A stretch of 64,000 nucleotides of DNA from Spirochaetota bacterium (GCA_025457915.1 JALOTL010000002.1:13692-77691); one strand, 5' to 3'; numbered from the stretch's first letter, positions 5,746-34,770 are shown. Made by a program: numbers and translations. The notes: generated by a model not told the origin, from the sequence alone.

Positions 5746-7413
5746 TCATTTCCCCTCCCGGGTGAAATGTCTTTTTTTCGAAATTTTAAATACCGTTTCA
5801 GCGCGGACTGATTTTAATGCCGGCGCCTCGTCCGGCGGGACCATGTTCCACGAATAAAGCTCCTGACCGGTAATTTCGAGGAATCTATCCATGCCGAGCC
5901 ATCTTTGATAACTCAGGTCAATTGCGTCATCGGAAATTTTTATATCCAGAAAACCCCAGGAAAGCTCACCATAGAGATGGTATTTAAATGCATATTCATC
6001 ATTGAAAAAAAGTCCATTAGGCGAATTCCTGTCGTGCCGCCAGTCCAGCCATCTGTTTTTTTTCCTTTTCATGATATAATCGTCCAGGGATGATCCTCCT
6101 GTACCGGCCACGAGATAGAAGGTCCCTCCCCAGGGCGTTTCCCCGTCTACCTGGAACGCGTCGAAGTTGTGGTCGTGTCCGGAAAGGACCAGGTCGACCC
6201 TGTGCTTCCTGAAAAGCTCCAGGTACTGGGCGGTCAGGATTTCGTTCGTTCCGTAATCTCCCGTGCTCAGCACGGGCGTGTGCATGCATACAATGATCCA
6301 TTTTTTTCCTGATTTTTTTTCCAGCTCGCGCTTTATGAAATCGTACTGCCTCCTCCCGGTCGAAAGTACCGGTCCGTCCGGGCTGGTCCCGGGCCCGTCA
6401 TAAGCGTTCGCGATTATGAAATGCGCGCACCCGTAGTCGAAGGAGTAAAACATGGGGATGGAGAAGAAGTACCTGAAATTTCCGGCATAATCCTCAAGGA
6501 ATTCATGATTTCCCGGGACAGGGACAAGCGGAAGGCCGGGATGGCGTTCCAGCACGGAAAAAAATTCCATCCATGAACGGAGATCGGATCCGGTTTTCAC
6601 CATATCGCCGAGGTGCAGCAGGAAATCCGGTTCGGCTCCGGCGGCGCGGTACCAGTCCCGGGCGGCGGACATCACCTCTCCGAAATATGAATAATACCCT
6701 TCGTTTCGTTTCGTGTTTCCCGTGTCTCCCATGCACAAAACCCTGAACGGTCCCTTCTCCGGCGGGGGGGTCCGGAATGCAAAGGTATCCTTTTTTAATC
6801 CCGGGATCTGATAAACGTATCCTGTCCATTGAGAGATACCGCCGGGAATGAATTCGTGCCTTGCGCCGCCCCGGGATTCTTCCGCGGTACTTATCATCCC
6901 GGACGGGTCCGGGCCCCTTCCGTAAAGGATCCGGTACTTTTTGCTTTCGCTTCCCGGTTCGTAAAACCAGATTTTGATCCGCCCGCCGTCGCCGATGACA
7001 GTGAATGGACCGATACCGGACTGGAACGAAAGCTCAGCTGAAGGATTTCTTCCGGTTTCGGCCAGGGATGACCCGGCTGTAATGAAGCACGCGAAGGCCG
7101 CGGAGACCGCGATCACGAGGACCGATGAAGCAGCATAAAATGTCCGATACGGGGTCAGAGCCCCGTTTTTTACCGCTGCAAGTTGCCTGATTGAAATCAA
7201 GGCAAGAACCGCAGATACTATCAGAATGATTGAAGTTACCGACACAATCCGGACCAGCAGGGAGGTTTTTAAAAAAATTATTACAATTTCCCAGCCGTAA
7301 ACCAGCAAAAAATAAACCACGGTTGAAATAACGGCAGCCGATGCGGCAAATTCCAGTACGGGCGGCATTAGAGGATTAATTTTTTTATCATGCATTTTTT
7401 TATTCCGCACCAA
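5746..7413 (-). CDS. Membrane-anchored metallophosphoesterase (purple acid phosphatase-like)
   Basis: N-terminal TM helices; MGD, HLGDMV, GNHE, MH.P, SGHDH motifs. Start uncertain. Confidence 0.85.
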   Translation of the reverse strand: MVRNKKMHDKKINPLMPPVLEFAASAAVISTVVYFLLVYGWEIVIIFLKTSLLVRIVSVTSIILIVSAVLALISIRQLAAVKNGALTPYRTFYAASSVLVIAVSAAFACFITAGSSLAETGRNPSAELSFQSGIGPFTVIGDGGRIKIWFYEPGSESKKYRILYGRGPDPSGMISTAEESRGGARHEFIPGGISQWTGYVYQIPGLKKDTFAFRTPPPEKGPFRVLCMGDTGNTKRNEGYYSYFGEVMSAARDWYRAAGAEPDFLLHLGDMVKTGSDLRSWMEFFSVLERHPGLPLVPVPGNHEFLEDYAGNFRYFFSIPMFYSFDYGCAHFIIANAYDGPGTSPDGPVLSTGRRQYDFIKRELEKKSGKKWIIVCMHTPVLSTGDYGTNEILTAQYLELFRKHRVDLVLSGHDHNFDAFQVDGETPWGGTFYLVAGTGGSSLDDYIMKRKKNRWLDWRHDRNSPNGLFFNDEYAFKYHLYGELSWGFLDIKISDDAIDLSYQRWLGMDRFLEITGQELYSWNMVPPDEAPALKSVRAETVFKISKKRHFTREGK

Positions 7414-12678: not shown

Positions 12679-13950
12679 ATGAGGCTAATCTTCGAAATCA
12701 ACATATCGGTCAAAAAGGGAAGCCTCCCCGACCTCATCCATAAGCTTACCCGCGGCGGCTGCGAGATCCAGAGGCTCGGCCTTACGGAGATGGCCGGCGG
12801 TGAAGAAGCCTATACCATCGAGGCCGTATACCATAAAAGCGAAGGCTTCAACGAATTCATATCCGAAATATCCGCTTCCGACGAAAGGTTCAGGACCATA
12901 TCCGTAAGGAACTCCCTGCAGGACAAGATATCCGGCGGCCTGCTGTCTTTTTCATCAAGGCTTCCCCTGGAGAACATGAGCGACTACCTTACCGGATTGA
13001 TAGGCGGGCACGACCTCATCCAGGAAAAGATCAGTGAGGGAAAGGGATCGGAATTCGCCGGGGTCGCGAGAAGCGTGGGGCTCGTGTCCGGGGTAAGGTC
13101 CGGCGATGAATCGAAGATCAAGGAGATCCTCAGCAGGTATTCCTCGGCCGAAAAGGACTCCGTCCTCATCAACCGCTTCACCGGGCTGAACGCCTTCCCT
13201 GTCGTCATCAGGTGCGACCAGCCGGAGGATTTTCTCAAGCACCTGAAGTCCATTGAAAGCAATTTTTCCGCCGTAAGAATTTTCGACGTCGACGGCGCCG
13301 ACATGATGATGTACGGCCAGATAATGTCCGGGATCAATATCCCGGTGCTCTCGAGGATGCTCGACGACATACCGGTATATCTTCTGGCGCTTGCCGGCAG
13401 GGTCGTTTCAAAGAACAGGCTGATATGGAAGGAACTCACGGCCGGTGTTGTGGGGATCGACGTATCCACGATAAGGACCTCGGTGCTGCTCGCCAAGATG
13501 GGGTGCAGGAGGGTGCTGGGATACGAAAACAACGAAAAATACATGCTCTCCTTCGAAAATTTCGGGGGCCTCGCCACAACGGCTGTGAACATCTTCGAGA
13601 ACGCCGACATAATTTTCCTTTTAAAAAGGAACTTCGACAGGAGCGAGCTTGCGAACCTCAGGCCGGGTCAGTACCTGATAAGCATGTTCGAGCTTGACGA
13701 CTCCGAATTGAAGATCATCAAGGACAGGGGAATAAGGGAGGTCATAAGGGGCGACATCGAATCGCTTTCAATGATTTTTCCGGGCGTGCTCATGGGGCTC
13801 GTTAAATCCGGGAAGAGCTCCTTCAATGATTCCATGGTGCTGGGTCTTTCGAAAAAAATAGAGGGGATGCTGGGCGGCCAGTACAGGCTTCCGGACGTTT
13901 TCAGCGGCATCCATGACGAGATAGCGGAGGCCGTTTCATCTGAAATCTGA
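12679..13950 (+). CDS. ACT-domain + malic-enzyme-like protein, degenerate active site
   Basis: Alignable by eye to MaeA/MaeB (GG.L....R.PL, F.GLNAFP......P..F....K.I...F, IPV, IFPGV..G), but the catalytic motifs are replaced. Confidence 0.65.
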   Translation: MRLIFEINISVKKGSLPDLIHKLTRGGCEIQRLGLTEMAGGEEAYTIEAVYHKSEGFNEFISEISASDERFRTISVRNSLQDKISGGLLSFSSRLPLENMSDYLTGLIGGHDLIQEKISEGKGSEFAGVARSVGLVSGVRSGDESKIKEILSRYSSAEKDSVLINRFTGLNAFPVVIRCDQPEDFLKHLKSIESNFSAVRIFDVDGADMMMYGQIMSGINIPVLSRMLDDIPVYLLALAGRVVSKNRLIWKELTAGVVGIDVSTIRTSVLLAKMGCRRVLGYENNEKYMLSFENFGGLATTAVNIFENADIIFLLKRNFDRSELANLRPGQYLISMFELDDSELKIIKDRGIREVIRGDIESLSMIFPGVLMGLVKSGKSSFNDSMVLGLSKKIEGMLGGQYRLPDVFSGIHDEIAEAVSSEI

Positions 13951-14733
13951 CGGGCCGAATTTTTCCGTGACTATTATCCACTCCAGGTTCCTGTGCCTGA
14001 ACAGGCTGTAGGCCGTTTCGGCCCCGGCATTGTCAAGAAAATACATCACGCCGCTCTCGCCGAGGCCCTTGATGTTCATGCGGCCGAACTGCCCGTATTC
14101 CGACTGTATCGAGGCGCTGTCCGCCGTGATTTTATACTTTTTATCGAGGCCGATGGCCTCTGATTTTTCCCCCACCGTTTCCCTGAGCCTGGCCATTCCG
14201 ATCTGGAGCACGAAGATCCCGGACGATGCCCCGTTTTCCAGCCGCGAAGAAATAAAGAGGGAATACCCGTCCTCCCTGTCGACCTTCAGAACGTCGCTGT
14301 AATAGGCGTCCCTTCCTGATTCGGTATAGCATTTATAAAGGCCGGAATTCTTGAGCTGCGTCGCCGCGTTTTTTCCGAAGACCCTGTCGTTTTTCATGGT
14401 ATAGATCACCGTGCCGGAGGAGTTCATCAGGATGTAGTCGCAGTACAATCCCCTCGTAACCGAATTTATAAGCCGGGTTATGGCCTCCCTTTCAAGAAGG
14501 TAGTATTTTCTTCCGCCTGAATCCATGCGGTGCAGGTGGGAAAGGTTCTTCACGAGGCCGTGCGAAATTATCACTTTCCCGGCCCTGGCCATGTCGGCCT
14601 CGCAGACGGAGAAAAGCCTTTTAAGCGAGATGGATGCCGGGTCTGCCGATCCGGGCGCCTGTCCGGTCGACATGATATCCGGTCCGGAAGTGCAGGAAAT
14701 GATCAGTATGGATAATAATATGGCTTTCTTCAT
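13936..14733 (-). CDS. Lipoprotein with a Cache-like sensory domain
   Basis: LIISC lipobox; YCDYILMNSSGTVIYTMKNDRVFGKN resembles the chemoreceptor dCache segment YYDIFLID..G.IVYTV.KE.DFG.N. Confidence 0.65.
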   Translation of the reverse strand: MKKAILLSILIISCTSGPDIMSTGQAPGSADPASISLKRLFSVCEADMARAGKVIISHGLVKNLSHLHRMDSGGRKYYLLEREAITRLINSVTRGLYCDYILMNSSGTVIYTMKNDRVFGKNAATQLKNSGLYKCYTESGRDAYYSDVLKVDREDGYSLFISSRLENGASSGIFVLQIGMARLRETVGEKSEAIGLDKKYKITADSASIQSEYGQFGRMNIKGLGESGVMYFLDNAGAETAYSLFRHRNLEWIIVTEKFGPSDFR

Positions 14734-14957
14734 GTTAATCTCCGGGTTTTCTCTGGTTATATGATCGATAAATTAATAGCGGCGCATTAGAAAATTAGCC
14801 GGGGGACGGCTCCAGATAAAGAGAACCGTAATTATGCTTCAGGATTTTTATGAAAATTATTTCCGGTTTCATTGAAAATATTTGCATTGATTGATTCAGC
14901 CGGGGTATATATGATATCGATCGATAATAAATTAGAACTAATCAAAGGTTATGTGAA

Positions 14958-15707
14958 ATGAAAAAAGTTATTTTTATAATGTTGTTTTTCGTTTTGACGG
15001 TTTTTGAATTATCATCATTCGCTATAGGTTTCGGGGGATACGTAAACGGCGGACTGGGCCAGACCATGTGGGGAACAAGCAGGACTTCATCTGAAAAACA
15101 TATCGGTTTCGGAGGCATCTTCGACACCAACGTCGGCAGTGATTCATTGTTCAATTACAGATTTTCTTTTTCCGCTGACAAATATGTATCGAAGATCAAC
15201 CGTAGTGGTAAAAGAGTGAATTTTCCATTTGAACCGCCGGTTATAATCGTAGAAAATACTTTGAATTCAGGCAGGCTTAAGTTTTACAGGTACGGCATTG
15301 AGAATATTTTTGGGTTTGGTCTGATAAGGACCGATAAAATTCGTTTCTGGGTGGGCCCGGGCCTCGGAATAAATTATTCAGAGATAGAAAGGACGAGAAT
15401 ATTTTCATATCAGACCATGCCGAGCGCTTTATATACCTATACCTGGCAGGCTATCCCGGTGCATAAAAGATTTAAAAGTATTACCGTAAATTTTGAATTG
15501 GCAATCGGATTAAACGTGAATCTGACTGAAATGCTTTCCATATTCTTGCAGACAGGTGCAAGGTACTGTATGATGAATGGAGAAAAGGCTACAAAAATAC
15601 ATCAGCCCTATTCCGGCTTCGGCCATGGATACGACTGTTACGCCAGGGCGGGTGTGATTTTCAGGTTCCTTGAGAACAAGAGCGGAAATGAACCTGTCAG
15701 TGAATAA
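14958..15707 (+). CDS. Outer-membrane beta-barrel protein (OMP-1)
   Basis: Signal peptide, alternating aromatic/Gly strands (GFGGYVNGG, FDTNV, FNYR, FGFG, RFWVGP, IGLN); paralog of 18272..18985. Confidence 0.75.
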   Translation: MKKVIFIMLFFVLTVFELSSFAIGFGGYVNGGLGQTMWGTSRTSSEKHIGFGGIFDTNVGSDSLFNYRFSFSADKYVSKINRSGKRVNFPFEPPVIIVENTLNSGRLKFYRYGIENIFGFGLIRTDKIRFWVGPGLGINYSEIERTRIFSYQTMPSALYTYTWQAIPVHKRFKSITVNFELAIGLNVNLTEMLSIFLQTGARYCMMNGEKATKIHQPYSGFGHGYDCYARAGVIFRFLENKSGNEPVSE

Positions 15708-15765
15708 AAGAAAGTGGAAACTGAAGATTAAAAAAATTTTTATGATCGACGGAAACGTCCCGATG

Positions 15766-15796
15766 AAAAAACCCCGGCGCAGACCGGGGTTTTTTT
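15766..15796. terminator. Bidirectional intrinsic terminator
   Basis: AAAAAACCCCGG-cgcaga-CCGGGGTTTTTT; lies between OMP-1 and the duplicated pcrA stop codon. Confidence 0.85.
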
Positions 15797-16018
15797 ACGG
15801 CATTTTTTCAAGGGGCGTGTATTTTTCGAGGAATGTCTTTTTCCCGCTCGTAAAAGCGATAGTCAGCTTGATGTTGTCGCCCTCGCCCTCTATCCTTTCG
15901 ATCCTTCCCGGCCCGTATTTCGGGTGCATCACCCTTTCCTTTACGCTGAACATCGACCCGGTGTCCCTGGGCGCGTCGCCGGACCGGAATTCCAGGTCCT
16001 CCTGTTCCCGTCCTGCCC
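15785..16018 (-). repeat. Direct-repeat copy of the pcrA 3' end (orphan C-terminal fragment)
   Basis: 15795-15985 matches 19262-19452 at 187/191 nt; 16001-16018 matches 19451-19468 at 17/18 after a 17-nt insertion. Confidence 0.97.
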
Positions 16019-16019
16019 G

Positions 16020-16243
16020 TCGGATTGAATTATCACATCTCCGAAACCATGACGCTTCTGTTCCAGTCTGGAGGAATGGTTTTTCTCTCTAAGGGCCCTG
16101 CGCACAACAGCTCGTGCTACGAGGGCGTAAGCGTGGGATATGAATACTACGGCAGGATGGGGATCATGTTCAGGTTCAATGAGACCTGGAGCGATGCGGC
16201 GCCTGTAAAGGACGTGAAAAAAGCCGAAGATGAAGGTGTCTGA
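16020..16243 (+). pseudogene. Orphan C-terminal fragment of a third beta-barrel OMP paralog
   Basis: GLNYHISETMTLLFQSGG...GYEYYGRMGIMFRFNE aligns with OMP-1 GLNVNLTEMLSIFLQTGA...GYDCYARAGVIFRFLE and OMP-2 GLNYHLTES; no signal peptide or N-terminal two-thirds. Confidence 0.8.
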
Positions 16244-16291
16244 TGATTGGCCGGCGCATACAGATGATAAAGCCCTGCGTTTGGATTTTCA

Positions 16292-16915
16292 TCATTTTCT
16301 CTTGGTCAGCTCGTCTATTATCGATCTTCTGACCTGTATCATTGTTTTCAGTTCGGCTTCAGTGAATTTAACGAACTGAGGATCAAGTCCCTTCCTGTCT
16401 TCTGTAGCAATAGTGTTGACCCTTTCGATATTGGCGGCCAGGCCGAGCCGCATGAATTCAAGAAGATCTGTCGGATATTCTTTGAGTTTTTCCTTTTTTT
16501 CCGCAAGGCCCTGCGTTAAATATTTTTCGGCGGGAATGCCCACGGTCTGATACGCGTTGAAATATGAATCGCTGAGTTTCTTCAAGTAATCCTTATATTC
16601 CGGACCGGAAGAGGATTTGACCTCTCTCAATCTCGTCTTAACATCGCTCATCGCCCCGCTTTCTTTCAAGGATGGTTTGTATTCTGGCTTCGTTTCGTTT
16701 TGAGGCAAAAGGCACGGACACCCCCTGTCTATATTATTATAAAAATCCTCCATTTCCATGGCCACGGCCTGTTTTTGTGCCGGCGTGAGCCCCTGTGAGA
16801 CTGCAAGCCCGGACAATATATTTTTTGTCCGGCCCGTTGAAGATGCTTCTTCAGAACAACCGGCCGTCAGCAGGAAGGCAACGCCAATAACAACATATAA
16901 AACTTTAAAACACAT
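16292..16915 (-). CDS. Lipoprotein of unknown function
   Basis: LLTAGC lipobox, AGGAGG SD, 15 nt downstream of the SGNH gene. Confidence 0.8.
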   Translation of the reverse strand: MCFKVLYVVIGVAFLLTAGCSEEASSTGRTKNILSGLAVSQGLTPAQKQAVAMEMEDFYNNIDRGCPCLLPQNETKPEYKPSLKESGAMSDVKTRLREVKSSSGPEYKDYLKKLSDSYFNAYQTVGIPAEKYLTQGLAEKKEKLKEYPTDLLEFMRLGLAANIERVNTIATEDRKGLDPQFVKFTEAELKTMIQVRRSIIDELTKRK

Positions 16916-16930
16916 ATAATACCTCCTGTT

Positions 16931-18253
16931 TCAAATCGGAGTGAATGTATAATAGGTGGTATTGATCACGAAAACCCAGTGAAACGGTTCCGCATAGAAA
17001 AACGCGTCAAGGACCGTATTGTATTTTAAAAGATAGCTTCTTTCATTCTCGCAGGTATCAACTGCCGTGACCTTGACTTCGCATGAAGGGACCATGGGGT
17101 CCATATTGATTTTATAAAGGCCTTCGGTCATCTTTTCCGCGTTCGTCACGTCGAGGATATTGTTCTGGTCAGACACGCTGAAGATGTACGGTATAGGCGG
17201 AAGATAGAAACCGCATAGCCCCACCCTGGTGATGCTGCCCGATGCCGGTCCTGAAACAGCCGGGGGATTCAATTCCGGCGTTCTGCAAAGGGCCGGGTTT
17301 TTCGGAAGCCATTTCAATGCCCCCAGCTTTTTCGCGATCATCTCCCCCCAGAGGGCGTTGCCGATCGGGGAGAAATGAACTCCATCGCCCGGTATGTAAT
17401 CAATAGGCTGACAATTTATATTAAAAATCAACCTGCTAAAATACGTATCATGAGTATGTAAAAGTTCGACTCTGTTTTCAAAAGATGGATTCTTCTTCAA
17501 TGAAGGAATTAGAACGGAACTATATTTTGCATTATAGATAAGGACCATCATTTCAGCGATAAAATTCATCTGTACGTCCCAGTTCCAGTCTTTTTTATCT
17601 TTATCTTTATATGATAATGCAACAGGTGCAATATCACTTAAAAGAACCTTATTTTGATTGTGACTGTTCAGAATTTTTGGTATGATGAAACTGAGGTTGC
17701 CGACCGCCCAGTCGGACGTGACATGCCCCCAGCAGGAAACGAAACAGAGGGAAACGAGAATGTCGCTCGCGCTTCCGAAAAGCTTGTCCCGCAGTGAGCT
17801 GTTCAAAAATTTTTTCAAAGCATCAAGTATTCCTGGCATTTTATGTTTACCATTACTATTATCATCTTTATTCATCATGATAGGTAAATATAGATCATTC
17901 CCCCCGAGTGATATAAATGCCACATATGGCTCAACAGGTTCATTTAAAGGAGGATTTATTCTCATATTGTGATAAGTATTAACGAAAGTATCAATGCCTG
18001 TAAATGGTGGCAGAAACATAGGATCCATTCTCCACATGATAGTCGACCAGAACGGCCTGCCTTCATTGAATATTGCTTTCGGAGGGTTGGAAGTGTCTAA
18101 AACCGGTACTGAAGTAGAAGAATATAAAGCATTTGTTATATATGGACTCTTTAGAAAAAAAGCTCGGCTGTCGCCCATGATAATCAGCGGATCACTTGCA
18201 TTGGCAATATTGTTCGAAATGAATATTATAAACATGAGTAATAATTTTTTCAT
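16931..18253 (-). CDS. Secreted SGNH/GDSL hydrolase with a C-terminal beta-rich extension
   Basis: Signal peptide; block I IIMGDS, block III SLGGND, block V DGVH. Confidence 0.85.
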   Translation of the reverse strand: MKKLLLMFIIFISNNIANASDPLIIMGDSRAFFLKSPYITNALYSSTSVPVLDTSNPPKAIFNEGRPFWSTIMWRMDPMFLPPFTGIDTFVNTYHNMRINPPLNEPVEPYVAFISLGGNDLYLPIMMNKDDNSNGKHKMPGILDALKKFLNSSLRDKLFGSASDILVSLCFVSCWGHVTSDWAVGNLSFIIPKILNSHNQNKVLLSDIAPVALSYKDKDKKDWNWDVQMNFIAEMMVLIYNAKYSSVLIPSLKKNPSFENRVELLHTHDTYFSRLIFNINCQPIDYIPGDGVHFSPIGNALWGEMIAKKLGALKWLPKNPALCRTPELNPPAVSGPASGSITRVGLCGFYLPPIPYIFSVSDQNNILDVTNAEKMTEGLYKINMDPMVPSCEVKVTAVDTCENERSYLLKYNTVLDAFFYAEPFHWVFVINTTYYTFTPI

Positions 18254-18271
18254 AACTATCCTCTACAAATA

Positions 18272-18985
18272 TTACGATCCGAGTTTATATATGAAGGAGA
18301 AACTTATTTGACCCGTGTACCCGGCATTATGGATCATTTGTTTTCCTGATAATGGCGCAATATTGAAATAGTAAAAGAAAAAAGGAACTGGATATCCATC
18401 CAATATAGCAAGTCCACCCATCTGACTGAAACCCGTTAAATCGAATTCATAATGCATTATTTTTCTCATAAGATATGATACATCGAAAGCCGCTTCAAAA
18501 GACAAACTTACCGACTCCGTCAAGTGATAGTTCAATCCGATAACCGGACCAGCCGAGATTGAAAAATAATTGAAGCCCTCTCTGAAACCGGCGGCTATCG
18601 CCAACTGGGGCCCAAACCAAAGCCTGACCGTGTCTGATGAATAAAGTCCGAACCCGAAATTATTATTGGCCTTAATATTATAAGTCGTTAAAAAGTGTTT
18701 TTTATTGATTACAGATACTCCGCTTGAATAACTAGTATTATCAAACAACCTCTCCCAATATCTATCAACCCCAAGATTCAGCCTGTAATTGAATCCTTCC
18801 TTATCGACATTGGTATCGTAAAGAAAACCCCCTCCCATCATAGATATGGATGGAAAACCGCCGTAATACTTGTTTGATATGCCGCCTCCTCCAGTGACAT
18901 ACCCGCCTAAACCGGAAGCGGCCATGCAGTTTATTGCCGTGAAAAACACGAAACCAGCAATCAGAATGACTGTTTCCTTTCTCAT
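18272..18985 (-). CDS. Outer-membrane beta-barrel protein (OMP-2)
   Basis: Signal peptide; GLGGYVTGG, YDTNV, FNYR, FGFG, RLWFGP, IGLNYH, the same motifs as OMP-1; TAAGGAG SD. Confidence 0.75.
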   Translation of the reverse strand: MRKETVILIAGFVFFTAINCMAASGLGGYVTGGGGISNKYYGGFPSISMMGGGFLYDTNVDKEGFNYRLNLGVDRYWERLFDNTSYSSGVSVINKKHFLTTYNIKANNNFGFGLYSSDTVRLWFGPQLAIAAGFREGFNYFSISAGPVIGLNYHLTESVSLSFEAAFDVSYLMRKIMHYEFDLTGFSQMGGLAILDGYPVPFFFYYFNIAPLSGKQMIHNAGYTGQISFSFIYKLGS

Positions 18986-19044
18986 TTGATCTCCTTATTA
19001 CTTAAGCGTTGATTTTATTCAAAAAATGACAAAAAATTTATGAC

Positions 19045-19073
19045 ATTATAACAGAGTCATCAATATTTGTCAA
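19045..19073 (-). promoter_or_regulatory. Consensus sigma70 promoter for the OMP-2/SGNH/lipoprotein operon
   Basis: Minus strand reads TTGACA-N17-TATAAT; overlapped by an ATGAC...GTCAT inverted repeat (19040-19060). Confidence 0.8.
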
Positions 19074-19261
19074 TCGGGCGAATTGACTATGAAAAACCTA
19101 ATCCTTTTAGGAAGCGAAACATCAGGGTTTTTGCTGATATCTATAATTGGGGAATTTGTATACATTAGATTATTGATAACCTTTTGTCTGTTGAATATCA
19201 GATAAATCAGGAGCTATGAATTAAATAGCAATGAAAGTATTCGTCGTTGACGCGGGGTTTT

Positions 19262-21436
19262 TTACGGCATTTTTTCGAGCGGCGTGTATTTTTCGAGGAA
19301 GGTCTTTTTCCCGCTCGTAAAAGCGATAGTCAGCTTGATGTTGTCGCCCTCTCCCTCTATCCTTTCGATCCTTCCCGGCCCGTATTTCGGGTGCATCACC
19401 CTTTCCTTTACGCTGAACATCGACCCGGTGTCCCTGGGCGCGTCGCCGGACCTGCTCCCGTCCTGCCCTGAAAAACCGTTTCCGCTGAAGTCGTTCGATG
19501 CGTGGAACACGGACTCCATGATATTTTCCGGTATCTCCGATATGAACCTCGAAGGCTGCTTGTAGAAAACCCCGGCGTATGACCTCCTGATATCGGCGCT
19601 TACCAGGTAGACCCTCTCCATCGCCCTCGTTATCCCGACGTAGCAGAGCCTCCTCTCCTCCTCGATCCCCTCCTCGGTGTCCACCGACAGCCTGTGCGGG
19701 AAGGTGTCTTCCTCCATGCCGGTCAGGAATACCACCGGGAATTCCAGTCCCTTCGCGTTGTGGACGGTCATCAGGGTCACGCAGTTGTCCCTGTTCTCCG
19801 GATCGGTCTCCGGGTTCTCTTCCGTCGTAAGGAGGGATATGTCCTGTAAAAACTGTTCGAGGGTGGCGTCCCTGTTCGAGTTCTCGTAGTCGTACGCGCC
19901 GTTCACCAGCTCCTCCAGGTTCTCCAGCCTTGATTCGCTCTCGGTCGTGTTTTCGCCCTCGAGCATGGCCCTGTACCCGCTTTCGTTTATCACGTCGTTT
20001 ACGAACGCGGAGAGCTTGATTTCCGGTATTTTCCTCGATATCTCCATCGACCTGGAGATTACCTTTACGAACTCATCGATCCCCTTGGGCGGTTTGTCCA
20101 GGCTGCCTTCTGAAATCAGCAGCCATTCCGGCATGTTTTTTTCAGCGGCCGCGGCCCTTATCCTGTCAAGGGTTGTCCTGCCTATCCCCCTTGCCGGAAC
20201 GTTTATGATCCTGAGGAAAGAAACGATGTCCAGCGGGTTCGCTATGAATCGGAGATAGGCTATGATGTCCTTTATTTCCTTCCTGTCGTAGAACTTGAGC
20301 CCTCCGACGACCCTGTACGGTAAGTTTTCCTTCCGCAAATGGTCCTCGAAGACCCTCGACTGGGCGTTTGTCCTGTAGAACACGGAGAAGTCCCTGTTTT
20401 TGAAGCCGTCGCTCCGCTTCAGTCCGGTTATCGTGTTCACGACATATTCCGCCTCGCCGTATTCATTGTTGGCCCTGCACCATACCACGGGTTCGCCGTC
20501 GCCCTTTACCGACCTTAGCTCTTTCGGCTTCCTCTTCCCGTTGTTTTTTATCACCGAGGATGCGGCCGTCAGTATTGGTTCTGTGGACCTGTAATTTTCC
20601 TCGAGGGTTATCACACCGGCATCGGGATAATCGCGCTCGAAATCGAGTATGTTCTTTATATCGGCGCCGCGCCAGGAATATATGGACTGGTCGTCGTCGC
20701 CCACCACGCATATGTTCCTGCTTCTTTCCGCGAGGAGCTTTGCAATGAGGTACTGCGCGTGGTTCGTGTCCTGGTACTCGTCAATCATGAAATGCGACCA
20801 CATCCTCTGCATGGTCTCCCTGGCCCTGGAGTCCGTTTTCAGGAGCTGTACCGCCTTGATCAGAAGGTCGTTGAAGTCCAGCGCGTTGAGCGATGCCATC
20901 CTTGAATGGTATTCCCTGTATACCTCCGGGAAATTGAAGGAGAAATAATCAGGGAGGAGCCTGGCCGGGTCCCCGCCGTCTATGAGCTCCGCCCTGTCCT
21001 TGATTTCTGAAATTTTGGATGCGATCATCGACAGACTTATCTTTTTCGGGTCGAGCCTCATGGAGAGCAGCACCTCCTTGATGACGGTCTGCTGGTCGGT
21101 GTCGTCATAAATGGAAAAATACCTCGGTATGCCTATGCCCTGGCCGAAATTCCTCAACATGTAAACTGAAGCGGCGTGGAACGTCTTGATGAAAACGCTG
21201 TTCCCCTCCGGCCCTACAAGGTCGATCACCCGTTTTTTCATTTCTCCCGCGGCCTTGTTCGTAAAGGTCACCGCGAAGATGCTGAAGGGCGGCACTTTTT
21301 TTTCCCCGATAAGATAGGCCGTCCTGTACGTGATGACCCTCGTCTTTCCCGAGCCCGCGCCGGCGAAAACGAGGAGCGGCCCGTCCGTGGCGAGCACCGC
21401 TTTTTTCTGGTTTTCGTTTAATTTATTGAAATCCAT
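19262..21436 (-). CDS. pcrA: ATP-dependent DNA helicase PcrA/UvrD
   Basis: AGAGSGKT, DEYQD, VGDDDQSIYSWRGA, NYRS, TVHNAKGLEF, EERRLCYVGITRA; C-terminal Tudor (HPKYGPG). Start moved to MDFNKLN (21436). Confidence 0.95.
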   Translation of the reverse strand: MDFNKLNENQKKAVLATDGPLLVFAGAGSGKTRVITYRTAYLIGEKKVPPFSIFAVTFTNKAAGEMKKRVIDLVGPEGNSVFIKTFHAASVYMLRNFGQGIGIPRYFSIYDDTDQQTVIKEVLLSMRLDPKKISLSMIASKISEIKDRAELIDGGDPARLLPDYFSFNFPEVYREYHSRMASLNALDFNDLLIKAVQLLKTDSRARETMQRMWSHFMIDEYQDTNHAQYLIAKLLAERSRNICVVGDDDQSIYSWRGADIKNILDFERDYPDAGVITLEENYRSTEPILTAASSVIKNNGKRKPKELRSVKGDGEPVVWCRANNEYGEAEYVVNTITGLKRSDGFKNRDFSVFYRTNAQSRVFEDHLRKENLPYRVVGGLKFYDRKEIKDIIAYLRFIANPLDIVSFLRIINVPARGIGRTTLDRIRAAAAEKNMPEWLLISEGSLDKPPKGIDEFVKVISRSMEISRKIPEIKLSAFVNDVINESGYRAMLEGENTTESESRLENLEELVNGAYDYENSNRDATLEQFLQDISLLTTEENPETDPENRDNCVTLMTVHNAKGLEFPVVFLTGMEEDTFPHRLSVDTEEGIEEERRLCYVGITRAMERVYLVSADIRRSYAGVFYKQPSRFISEIPENIMESVFHASNDFSGNGFSGQDGSRSGDAPRDTGSMFSVKERVMHPKYGPGRIERIEGEGDNIKLTIAFTSGKKTFLEKYTPLEKMP

Positions 21437-21652
21437 TTTTAGTTCTCGATGAAAAAGTGTAGCTGAAAAGATCCATTTGGGCAAGATTCATTCATAGCGT
21501 CCCATATGGCAAACAAAAAAGTGCCGGGTAGACCAGAGCCTGCCATTAAAAACCCGACTCTACAGTTTTACCGGATTTTTTTTGGAAGTTCAAAACAGAT
21601 CGAAAAAAGGTTAAAACCGGGTGACAACAGATCAGGAATGATGCATTGACTC

Positions 21653-22222
21653 TCAGGGGCTGATCGTATGGATATTTTTCTCGCCCCTGTTCCTGAAATA
21701 AAGGAGCAGAAAAATTTGGAGCTTTCTGAATCCGTAAAGGATATAGCCGAGAACGATGTATTCACCTAGCCGCAGGAGGGCGATTTTGTAATTTTCCACG
21801 CGGTAAACAGGCTTCTGATTTCCATCGTAGCAGGTGAAATCCTGGATAAAATCCGTCCTTCCGGGGAGCGGATGGAGGGTCTGTACATTCCTCTCGAGGG
21901 AGGTGCTTTCGGGGCACATCAGGTTAACTGGCATGTTGTATACAAAGTTTCCGGTCTGGTCGATCGCTGCGCCCATCAGCGAATAAAAAATGATCGCACC
22001 GGCCAGGATGATGTTTTTTCTTTTGCCGACCGAGCGGGCGGCCGCGCCGAAAGCGAAGTAACCGATTACAAGAAAAATAATGCTGGCGAAGCCCTCTATG
22101 TGCGAGAAGGCCCAGATAAGTCCGATGAACCCCCCGATGACAAGCGCTATCCCCCCGAAACCGACCAGTACCCAGGACCAGGACGGCAGCTTTTCGGTAA
22201 TTTTAAAAAAAGTCTCCAGCAT
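21653..22222 (-). CDS. Hypothetical membrane protein
   Basis: About 4 TM helices with a Cys-pair loop; start moved to ATG 22222 because the longer ORF overlaps rimP. Confidence 0.6.
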   Translation of the reverse strand: MLETFFKITEKLPSWSWVLVGFGGIALVIGGFIGLIWAFSHIEGFASIIFLVIGYFAFGAAARSVGKRKNIILAGAIIFYSLMGAAIDQTGNFVYNMPVNLMCPESTSLERNVQTLHPLPGRTDFIQDFTCYDGNQKPVYRVENYKIALLRLGEYIVLGYILYGFRKLQIFLLLYFRNRGEKNIHTISP

Positions 22223-34226: not shown

Positions 34227-34333
34227 GAAGGGACTCCCTGCCGGGTAAGGCAATTGACAGATTTTCATTAACTTTTCTATCATATCAGCGGATTTGAAAA
34301 AAACCAGTCATTTTTATTCATTGAATGCAATAA

Positions 34334-34555
34334 GCGAACCTCTAATGATCAAATCAGGATGTTCCCTTGCGGGCACTTTCAATGTTTAAATTACGGCGGT
34401 CACAAAAACCAGTTTTTCATTTTTAAAACAAATAAATAAACTGGTTTTTTCAATACAAGCGCCCTATGGCAGGCACAAAAACGATAGTTTTTGTGATCAG
34501 CCATTAGATTTTTTCAGCGGTTTGATAATGAAAAATCTAATTTATAGAGGTGCCC
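34334..34555. mobile_element. Degenerate MITE/REP-like non-coding element
   Basis: Imperfect terminal IRs (GCGAACCTCTA or GGGCACTTTC ... TAGAGGTGCCC) around three internal hairpins; right end repeated at 27992-28006. Confidence 0.45.
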
Positions 34556-34770
34556 ATAAACGACCGGTTAAAAGACTGGAGGAATGTGTCGTTTGAAATA
34601 TCATCCGGCTTCAGTGCGATTTAATATCCGGGCTTTCCGGATGATGAGCCGGTTCCCGCATGCGGTGCGAAAAAATTTAATTGACTCTCCAAACTCCATG
34701 ATTGTTATTAAACCAGAGCCGGGCGGCGAGAATGCCGTCCCTGCAACATCAATCCGTAATGGAGCCTTAT

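Follow-up and report, generated by a model that had tools for sequence, protein, structure and literature searches.

How does a block of surface-protein genes come to lie between two copies of the 3' end of a housekeeping gene when nothing in the block encodes an enzyme that could have moved it? This question is raised by a locus in a 64,000-nt stretch of DNA (hereafter, the window; GCA_025457915.1 JALOTL010000002.1:13692-77691) from an uncultured, Leptospirales-like Spirochaetota genome, where 3.2 kb are enclosed between an orphan and a live copy of the 3' end of pcrA, the gene of a UvrD-type helicase. The window belongs to contig C44 of a 50-contig assembly of the metagenome-assembled genome (MAG) type. 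An earlier note, made from the sequence alone, had treated the enclosed block as an integrase-free island brought in by incoming DNA. The island looks like the outcome of ordinary recombination between strain variants and not like a new kind of mobile element. With moderate confidence, we attribute it to an insertion-duplication that resulted from recombination of two haplotypes at a hypervariable surface-protein locus behind pcrA, through one homologous exchange and one illegitimate joint.

Two pcrA tails and their junctions

The repeat pair and the gene that it completes comprise the following features.

15785..16018, minus strand: left repeat, the orphan pcrA 3' end, comprising a portion of the linker, the complete Tudor domain and the stop codon
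19253..19468, minus strand: right repeat, the live pcrA 3' end, in which 12 nt past the stop codon match the left copy, with no terminator
19262..21484, minus strand: intact pcrA/uvrD-type helicase gene, given as the longest open reading frame (ORF; 740 aa), with a probable ATG start at 21436
15764..15797, no strand assigned: bidirectional intrinsic terminator, identified by hairpin folding and common to the orphan pcrA tail and geneA, the neighboring gene for a predicted outer-membrane beta-barrel

The two copies are in direct orientation and align without gaps over 15775-15985 and 19242-19452 at 95% identity; the gapped local alignment pairs 15785-16018 with 19253-19468 and contains a 1-nt gap in a T-run and a 17-nt gap. 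As the earlier note had described, the coding parts (15795-15985 and 19262-19452) are 191-nt sequences that encode the same 62 residues and differ by four nucleotides, all in third codon positions and all synonymous (15810, 15813, 15834 and 15885 in the left copy; the codon pairs at the four sites are GGC/GGA for Gly, ACA/ACC for Thr, CCC/CCG for Pro and CTT/CTC for Leu). With these codons, 21-27% of random single changes are synonymous, and four synonymous differences out of four have P = 0.002-0.005 under unconstrained change. Because all four differences are synonymous, the tails appear to represent two alleles that diverged while functional, which supports the proposal that both evolved as working gene ends. 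Elsewhere in the same genome, the pcrA tail has solely a 27-nt match on contig C23. A self-comparison of the genome, with lower limits of 80 nt and 85% identity and spacings of 0.3-30 kb, yielded 22 direct-repeat pairs, among which the pcrA pair is the most similar (97.5%).

The live gene encodes a PcrA/UvrD helicase of superfamily 1, with matches to PF00580 (E 5.6e-82), PF13361 (2.4e-75) and PF21196 (3.3e-07), all above the cut-offs; the last of these, PcrA_UvrD_tudor, covers residues 693-738 of the 740-aa ORF, and PcrA relatives align from residue 19-22 onwards. The orphan tail holds an ATG-started ORF of 52 aa (15795-15953, minus strand) that encodes the entire Tudor domain and has the native terminator behind it; inspection by eye revealed no obvious ribosome-binding site in front of it. 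Though this is unlikely, the ORF might be made as a free RNA-polymerase-binding mini-protein, which would also explain why the differences in the orphan are only synonymous.

Only the orphan left copy has kept the bidirectional terminator, in agreement with the earlier note: its hairpin reaches -25.1 and -23.5 kcal/mol on the two strands (z -4.7 and -3.7), against -2.1 kcal/mol, no better than shuffles, for the stretch 3' of the live pcrA stop. A hairpin of the same type occupies the equivalent place in a metagenome contig, L034, from a close relative. With its terminator lost, pcrA, otherwise whole, probably reads into the genes behind it, which also have a strong promoter of their own, and the old terminator would now end the transcription unit of pcrA and these genes behind the orphan tail.

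The architecture of the locus can be compared with contigs that were assembled independently of the window from a public wetland metagenome run (X1), possibly the source sample; these contigs were built from 31-letter words and carry one depth figure each. X1 contains 97% of the sampled words of 14500-20500, and its contigs span all three unique junctions with 0 differences to the window. Record 1 (14500-15864) leads from geneA and the terminator into the left copy, with the three private differences of that copy; record 2 (15984-18887) leads from the left copy across 16018/16019 into the island, with 35 aligned letters on the left side and 2.9 kb on the right; and record 4 (18878-19331) leads from the island into the right copy, again with the private differences. 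The joint at 16018/16019, for which the earlier note had considered a strain-chimeric misassembly, is bridged by an independent contig and hence is real DNA in that run. The piece common to both copies (record 7) is 207 nt long, with a depth of 27.6, about twice that of its neighbors (14.4-17); it fills the space between the difference at 15834/19301 and another one at 16005/19455, and in the window this interval measures 170 nt in the left and 153 nt in the right copy. Altogether, the arms and the island have depths of 14.4-21.5 (17, 14.4, 15.4 and 21.5), and the core has 27.6. An estimate of an island-free sub-population from these depths was rejected, given the single figure per contig.

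The two assemblies differ within the repeats. Relative to the window, X1 has 37 additional nt in the left copy, at 15984/15985, and 54 additional nt, equivalent to 18 PcrA-linker codons, in the right copy, at 19451/19452; the same 54 nt are present in the pcrA linker of L034. The X1 island contig starts with 9 unfitting and 22 fitting letters and the pcrA-body contig with 26 unfitting and 5 fitting letters, 31 in each case, as 31-letter words would give if the two branches departed from one longer piece common to the copies. The copies as they stand in X1 can be aligned collinearly for about 270 nt (86 codons and the stop), with five substitutions, namely the four synonymous ones and a Ser/Asn replacement in the variable linker, read by eye, and the frame-breaking 17-nt gap is gone. 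Because the X1 copies are longer by 37 and 54 nt, this gap is probably unreal, and the inner repeat ends of the window most likely reflect errors of local assembly or, possibly, a variant of a strain not represented in X1. A single assembler word size was considered as the cause of both missing stretches and rejected: k = 99 fits their starts (15885 + 98 = 15983) but not the points at which the sequence resumes.

The enclosed cassette and its family

A gene stub and three genes occupy 16019-18985.

16019..16243, plus strand: A2 stub, the final 74 codons of a paralogue of geneA, with no start codon and joined head-on to the pcrA linker
16292..16915, minus strand: g207, cassette gene 3, a predicted lipoprotein, from a signal peptide with cysteine read by eye
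16931..18253, minus strand: g440, cassette gene 2, a putative secreted SGNH/GDSL-like protein, from Atlas neighbors and motifs seen by eye
18272..18985, minus strand: g237, cassette gene 1, a predicted outer-membrane beta-barrel, from an AlphaFold model and Foldseek
18747..19097, minus strand: 5' module conserved among the cassettes, in which some 115 nt of upstream sequence are followed by the first 107-240 nt of the barrel gene; holds the promoter

The description in the earlier note, about 3.2 kb of AT-richer surface-protein genes with no integrase or transposase, is accurate with respect to content, GC and the absence of a recombinase, but misses the geneA-like stub at 16019-16243. The stub matches the C-terminus of geneA (BLASTP, 31% identity, E 3e-10) in an alignment that reaches the stop, and begins at the conserved G-L-N motif of the barrel family (alignment A1). 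Its tblastn matches in the same genome are itself and geneA only, and a search for a full-length relative of A2 among longer proteins gave 0 matches, which is weak evidence by the search's own account.

The proteins g237 and geneA belong to one family (BLASTP, 28% identity, E 7e-10; alignment A1). The AlphaFold model of g237 is of moderate quality (predicted local distance difference test score, pLDDT, 65) and shows a signal helix (residues 2-21) followed by an all-beta structure with eight long strands; 8 of the 8 Foldseek matches at E <= 0.001 are outer-membrane barrels, the best folds being OmpW (template-modelling score, TM, 0.64 by target), OmpT/Pla, OpcA and NspA. The combination of a signal peptide with an all-beta barrel identifies g237, geneA and A2 as a predicted outer-membrane beta-barrel family. 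An NCBIfam match of geneA to a Treponema TDE1717-type barrel is weak, far below the cut-off, and 54 pattern matches of alignment A1 to a collection of contigs from other genomes included none that was confirmed. For g440, all feature and structure neighbors in the Atlas are GDSL/SGNH proteins (scores <= 0.86; TM 0.45 by query and 0.64 by target), a similarity at the level of a lead; its translation contains G-D-S and D-x-x-H motifs, as judged by eye, and the match to the Leptospira-type hydrolase family LIC10707 of NCBIfam is weak (18.5 bits vs a cut-off of 380). There is no Pfam match for g440, and a search of the protein collection returned itself and one 25%-identical protein. More generally, the island ORFs match zero Pfam or NCBIfam families above the cut-offs; Pfam matches were found in two of the 10 ORFs scanned around the island (PcrA and NusA), and Rfam identified two tRNAs across the whole window and nothing within or near the island.

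The operon of barrel, SGNH-like protein and lipoprotein is present in four full copies in this genome (the island, two on contig C19 and one on C35) and in a partial copy, at 30-54% protein identity to the island genes. The highest value is that of g237 and its C19 paralogue (54%), whereas the paralogues of g207, in the same operon position at the two C19 sites and on C35, are 33-43% identical, and one more lies in the partial copy near C19:193588. There are five copies of g440 in the genome, and its family was found in three of the 41 genomes searched, this one included. The 5' module, in contrast to the gene bodies, retains 81-91% DNA identity across the four full copies (18747-19097; C19:6671-7021; C19:36819-37331; C35:3215-3727), with 90% between the island and C19:6671-7021, and in the island it contains a consensus sigma-70-type promoter at 19073-19045 (TTGACA-17-TATAAT with an upstream TG, 12/12). 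The conserved module beside diverged gene bodies suggests conversion or a strong constraint on the module. Variable surface-protein gene families with conserved 5' ends are known in spirochaetes. The present multi-copy family, with its conserved promoter and signal-peptide module and its diverged bodies, may be comparable to them; unlike them, it consists of full operons with their own promoters, and programmed switching or silent cassettes are not in evidence.

The GC content of the island (41.6% vs 49.0% in the genome) falls in the 9th percentile of 3.2-kb windows. Because the paralogous cassettes (35.5-41.8%) and geneA (41.1%) are likewise low in GC, the AT-richness is a trait of the gene family and no sign of foreign origin, and because C19 and C35 hold three further complete operons, also of low GC, the cassette is part of a native, resident paralogous family.

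No recombinase was found in or near the island, either by Pfam searches of the island ORFs or by profile searches of the genome and of contig C44. Contig C44 lacks matches to PF00589, PF00239, PF00665 and PF01609, and the epithet integrase-free is therefore justified; genome-wide, there are three tyrosine recombinases of PF00589 (on C18, C3 and C28), three rve (PF00665) matches on C19 and C45, and none to PF00239 or PF01609 (DDE_Tnp_1). None of the six inverted pairs found in 13000-22000 provides terminal inverted repeats at the island ends. The duplication, 216-234 nt in the window and about 270 nt in X1, is not what a transposon, an insertion sequence (IS) or a miniature inverted-repeat transposable element (MITE) would leave: target-site duplications made by transposases are far shorter than 216-270 nt. 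A search of the plasmid collection with g440 and a search of the phage collection with the whole island gave no match.

Several repeats and mobile elements were observed at other places in the genome. The start of C19 carries two IS elements (L075:92-1294 and L075:1875-2959), namely an IS3-like orfA/orfB pair, at a distance of about 1.3 kb from the closest paralogous cassette, and an IS with an rve transposase and 25-nt terminal inverted repeats, some 3 kb away from that cassette; a gene for a truncated N6/N4 DNA methylase is found within the same distance. This vicinity is the one lead to a mobile element that the searches left. The same contig contains a tandem array with a 96-nt period (G000:C19:103154-103907; 85-88% identity between shifted copies). 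In the window, 34326-34559 (G000:C44:48017-48250) belongs to a MITE-like family of dispersed repeats, which has no Rfam match; its long form, about 230 nt, occurs more than 25 times across many contigs (79-92% identity), and a short form of about 115 nt consists of the two ends. A 362-nt direct repeat on C36 (G000:C36:1081-1441 and 17181-17542; 95.9% identity, 15.7 kb apart), of which the second copy closes the contig, may be the mark of an element that is circular or repeated.

Locus history and the origin of the duplication

On the far side of the orphan tail, two more genes bear on the history of the locus.

13936..14733, minus strand: g265, lipoprotein-like, the probable ancestral downstream neighbor of pcrA, from orthologues directly after pcrA in distant loci
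14958..15707, plus strand: geneA, a 249-aa predicted outer-membrane beta-barrel of the same family as g237; hypervariable

The closest PcrA relatives come from metagenome-assembled Spirochaetota/Leptospirales genomes, with a best PcrA identity of 66% among the genomes compared. In 10 of 29 distant loci, an orthologue of g265, a gene with no Pfam or NCBIfam match, directly follows pcrA (gaps of 29-249 nt between tblastn matches), and in 9 of those 10, g423 comes next; geneA-family or cassette genes are found behind pcrA in 0 of the 29. Among 50 loci of relatives (29 with only 1.5-kb flanks), the island or geneA proteins matched L034 alone. L034 encodes a PcrA protein that is 94% identical to that of the window, with DNA identity of about 94% in pcrA and in g265/g423, and represents the empty site: pcrA with a single tail copy, the hairpin terminator and a geneA orthologue are adjacent (L034 1-2029 corresponds to window 21227-19253 and L034 1833-6209 to window 15982-11584). 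Against the 94% in the flanks, geneA and its orthologue (L034:2084-2860) share 62% protein and 59-68% DNA identity; because geneA is so much more diverged than its flanks, the existence of highly diverged alleles at the pcrA locus is plausible. The relatives thus display three states of the locus, with pcrA and g265 in direct contact, with geneA between them (L034), and with geneA and the island (window). Judged from these arrangements, geneA appears to have been inserted first between pcrA and g265, in an ancestor common to L034 and the window, and in the line of the window this space also holds the stub and cassette. The neighborhood downstream of pcrA is accordingly variable among the 10 of 29 distant loci, L034 and the window, as would be expected of the capture hotspot that the earlier note had envisaged. 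Its claim that incoming DNA displaced the resident tail holds insofar as the island is an extra block compared with the empty site of L034, but either side may have been the incoming one.

A further public run, from wastewater (X2), has no cover over parts of the stretch, including geneA and both repeats, and its contigs contain pieces of g207, g440 and g237 at about 90-95% identity, similar to its pcrA pieces. Within this species complex, the cassette may be about as old as the housekeeping genes.

These observations lead us to the following scenario. Haplotype 1 would have had the arrangement of L034, that is, g265, geneA, terminator and pcrA, and haplotype 2 a diverged allele of geneA (A2), the cassette g207-g440-g237 and pcrA. 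The chromosome of the window would comprise all of haplotype 1 and the part of haplotype 2 from mid-A2 to pcrA, with one joint formed by a RecA-type homologous exchange within the last 230-270 nt of pcrA and the other, at 16018/16019, by an illegitimate joining of the pcrA linker to mid-A2. Because the inner left edge of the island is a truncated gene of the geneA family, oriented to pcrA as geneA is, the insert appears to be cut out of a homologous locus, its edge being a broken gene and not the end of an element. The view of the insert as a discrete or foreign element has to be changed: with its geneA-like stub, the insert would be a piece of an alternative allele, and the cassette is resident, with four full copies.

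Three routes to this structure can be envisaged, none of which would need a dedicated recombinase. In Campbell-type insertion-duplication, a single crossover of a circular molecule that carries a gene fragment produces two direct copies of the fragment, one complete and one orphan. A circularised fragment of haplotype 2 could have integrated in this manner. The direct copies around the insert, one with the gene body and the other orphan, correspond to this model, and three informative sites fit swapped differences, though weakly; Campbell-type events, however, are known mainly as a laboratory tool or for plasmids, and here a natural chromosomal circle would have to be postulated. Alternatively, linear DNA could have entered by homology-facilitated illegitimate recombination (HFIR), which, as described in the available part of the source, occurs in natural transformation of Acinetobacter, Streptococcus pneumoniae and Pseudomonas stutzeri, combines a homologous anchor with an illegitimate joint, depends on RecA and uses no element-encoded enzyme (PMC6382021, with reference to Meier and Wackernagel 2003). 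As in HFIR, one homologous anchor (the right repeat, which continues into the pcrA body, the tails being about 98% identical) and one joint of unrelated sequences (16018/16019) would have brought in DNA that lacks homology at the far end; in contrast to the present case, in which the anchor is duplicated, HFIR usually replaces or deletes recipient DNA next to it, and of the genes for competence, only ComEC-like and DprA genes were seen. One ComEC-like and two DprA matches exceed the cut-offs, and the same families are present in 10 and 11 of 14 control genomes, so these matches are no proof of competence. The third route would be an unequal exchange between the haplotypes, or a tandem duplication followed by allelic replacement. 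Compared with L034, the differences between the tails form a mosaic: L034 agrees with the left copy at 15810 and 15813, with the right copy at 15885 and with neither at 15834; with three informative sites only, this is weakly suggestive of the pattern expected from a crossover inside the repeat.

Several points weigh against this scenario. Haplotype 2 was not seen: no contig joins A2, the cassette and pcrA, and full-length A2 is absent among the longer proteins searched. The protein identity of A2 and geneA is 31-34%, whereas the pcrA tails differ by about 2%, so A2 may be a paralogue. The empty site of L034 could have arisen through secondary deletion between the repeats, which leaves the direction of the event unfixed, and a second gene-tail duplication in the genome (see below) might be the sign of a dedicated mechanism. 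For the joint at 16018/16019, a short microhomology (3-10 nt) of the HFIR type could be scored only against the donor sequence upstream of the stub. The two inner repeat ends of the window find no support in the X1 contigs, and the assembly at the repeat is partly unreliable; finally, contigs of 31-letter words cannot phase the copies across the identical core of about 150 nt.

The same evidence bears on three other explanations. The island might be resident, if an ancestor with haplotype 2 tandemly duplicated the segment from mid-A2 to the pcrA linker, which would make the 16018/16019 joint, and the left unit was then replaced by geneA and the terminator, the actual newcomers, through a double-crossover allelic exchange anchored in g265 and the pcrA tail. 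The fusion of a 3' fragment to the 3' fragment of another gene is the classic novel joint of a tandem duplication, the geneA alleles are as highly diverged as swapped alleles should be, and the divergence of the cassette genes in X2, about that of its pcrA pieces, allows for an old cassette. However, this explanation takes two events where one suffices, no genome with haplotype 2 was found, and the adjacency of geneA, terminator and pcrA tail, hairpin included, is common to L034 and looks ancestral; we regard it as rather unlikely. The drawn contig path, too, might be wrong, such that the junctions are real but the island is an excised circle beside an empty site, a tandem array, or a mix of strains in one contig. 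An assembly of 50 contigs of the MAG type, in which the window falls short of X1 and L034 by 37 and 54 nt at the repeat and the assembler evidently mishandled it, gives some room for this, as does the inability of the 31-letter contigs to phase the identical core. Nevertheless, the joint of the pcrA linker and the stub occurs in the independent assembly at the depth of the island, and any molecule with this joint must have a pcrA tail on its left, so the illegitimate joint is real in every version; the depths, with about 1x in the arms and the island against about 2x in the core, fit the structure as drawn, although a circle plus an empty site fits them too; on balance, a wrong path seems very improbable.

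The remaining explanation, which we consider unlikely, is that the island is a remnant or passenger of a site-specific element that targets the pcrA tail and carries a replacement tail, and that was mobilised in trans or lost its integrase. Phage 21 integrates into the 3' end of icd in Escherichia coli. The e14 prophage uses the same gene: according to the available part of the source, icd runs into e14, and icdC, a C-terminal pseudogene, is located at its far end (PMC13626634, with reference to Hill et al. 1989). So far as that part of the source goes, the likeness is close: an insert is flanked by two copies of the C-terminal end of a housekeeping gene, the copy on the insert side completes the live gene, the original tail is left as an orphan (here with its native terminator at the far end), most of the differences are synonymous or conservative, and the insert is one that recombination of the two tails would take out. 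The three tyrosine recombinases in the genome and the second gene-tail duplication, around a 3.0-kb insert on C8, could also be read in this light. But e14, as described there, is a 15-kb prophage with its own site-specific recombination and SOS-induced excision, whereas here 3.2 kb are filled by the stub and three family genes, with no recombinase, phage or plasmid gene and no match in the plasmid and phage collections. Furthermore, the far edge is a broken chromosomal gene and not att-like, the nearest relatives of the cargo are chromosomal paralogues in the same genome, and the differences are a mosaic across the repeat instead of defining one crossover core at its inner end, which is a weak argument. 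Recombination of two haplotypes by insertion-duplication is the scenario that we prefer to these explanations.

Another gene-tail duplication and the remodelling of the locus

The search for other duplications of gene 3' ends that the earlier note had proposed turned up one case: among 10 of the 22 direct-repeat pairs that were inspected, only the pcrA pair and a pair on C8 have the gene-tail geometry. On C8, 3.0 kb separate the live tail of a 375-aa GNAT-like gene from an orphan copy of its last ~35 codons; the repeat is 111 nt long and 92.8% identical, with the same stop position (L058:2962-3072 and 6066-6176; G000:C8:131461-131571 and 134565-134675), and a 2-oxoacid:ferredoxin oxidoreductase pair (570 and 289 aa) is located between the tails. 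The orphan derives from the adjacent GNAT-like gene and not from its paralogue, which is only 73% identical. Because its differences include amino-acid changes, it appears to be older than the pcrA orphan or unconstrained. In the loci of 11 relatives, 0 have the oxidoreductase genes or the outer neighbors (ORFs of 537 and 534 aa) beside the GNAT-like gene, a comparison that carries no information because synteny is lost at that distance.

The C8 duplication hints at recurrence of the gene-tail pattern. Taken together, three traces, namely geneA between pcrA and g265, the cassette with its repeat of about 230-270 nt, and the C8 pair with its 111-nt tail repeat, could reflect recurrent, recombinase-free and homology-anchored capture at gene tails in this lineage, which would add blocks behind conserved genes without breaking them, but we hold this generalization to be unlikely. 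If it is true, the repeats would make the blocks reversibly removable and the surface cassette switchable at the population level. At the pcrA locus itself, a repeat length of 216-270 nt is ample for RecA-dependent deletion. Repeats of this length that are about 98% identical would permit loss of the island and restore a state like that of L034, and the cassette may be lost and regained at the population level.

The locus adds one more case to a type of rearrangement that is already known, and is moderately interesting for its history, for the recurring gene-tail pattern and for the family of surface operons. For the use of MAGs, it carries a caution: an independent assembly upholds the large-scale structure but not the precise points at which the repeats end in the deposited contig. 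It also defines a lineage-restricted surface operon of three genes, for a barrel, an SGNH-like protein and a lipoprotein, with a promoter module common to the copies. The three states among relatives mark the space behind pcrA in this uncultured group of spirochaetes as a repeatedly remodelled surface-protein locus. Under the scenario of two recombining haplotypes, the island would be a clean natural example of a housekeeping gene tail serving as the homology anchor for the gain of surface-protein genes without a mobile-element enzyme, the resulting repeats being able to remove the block again.

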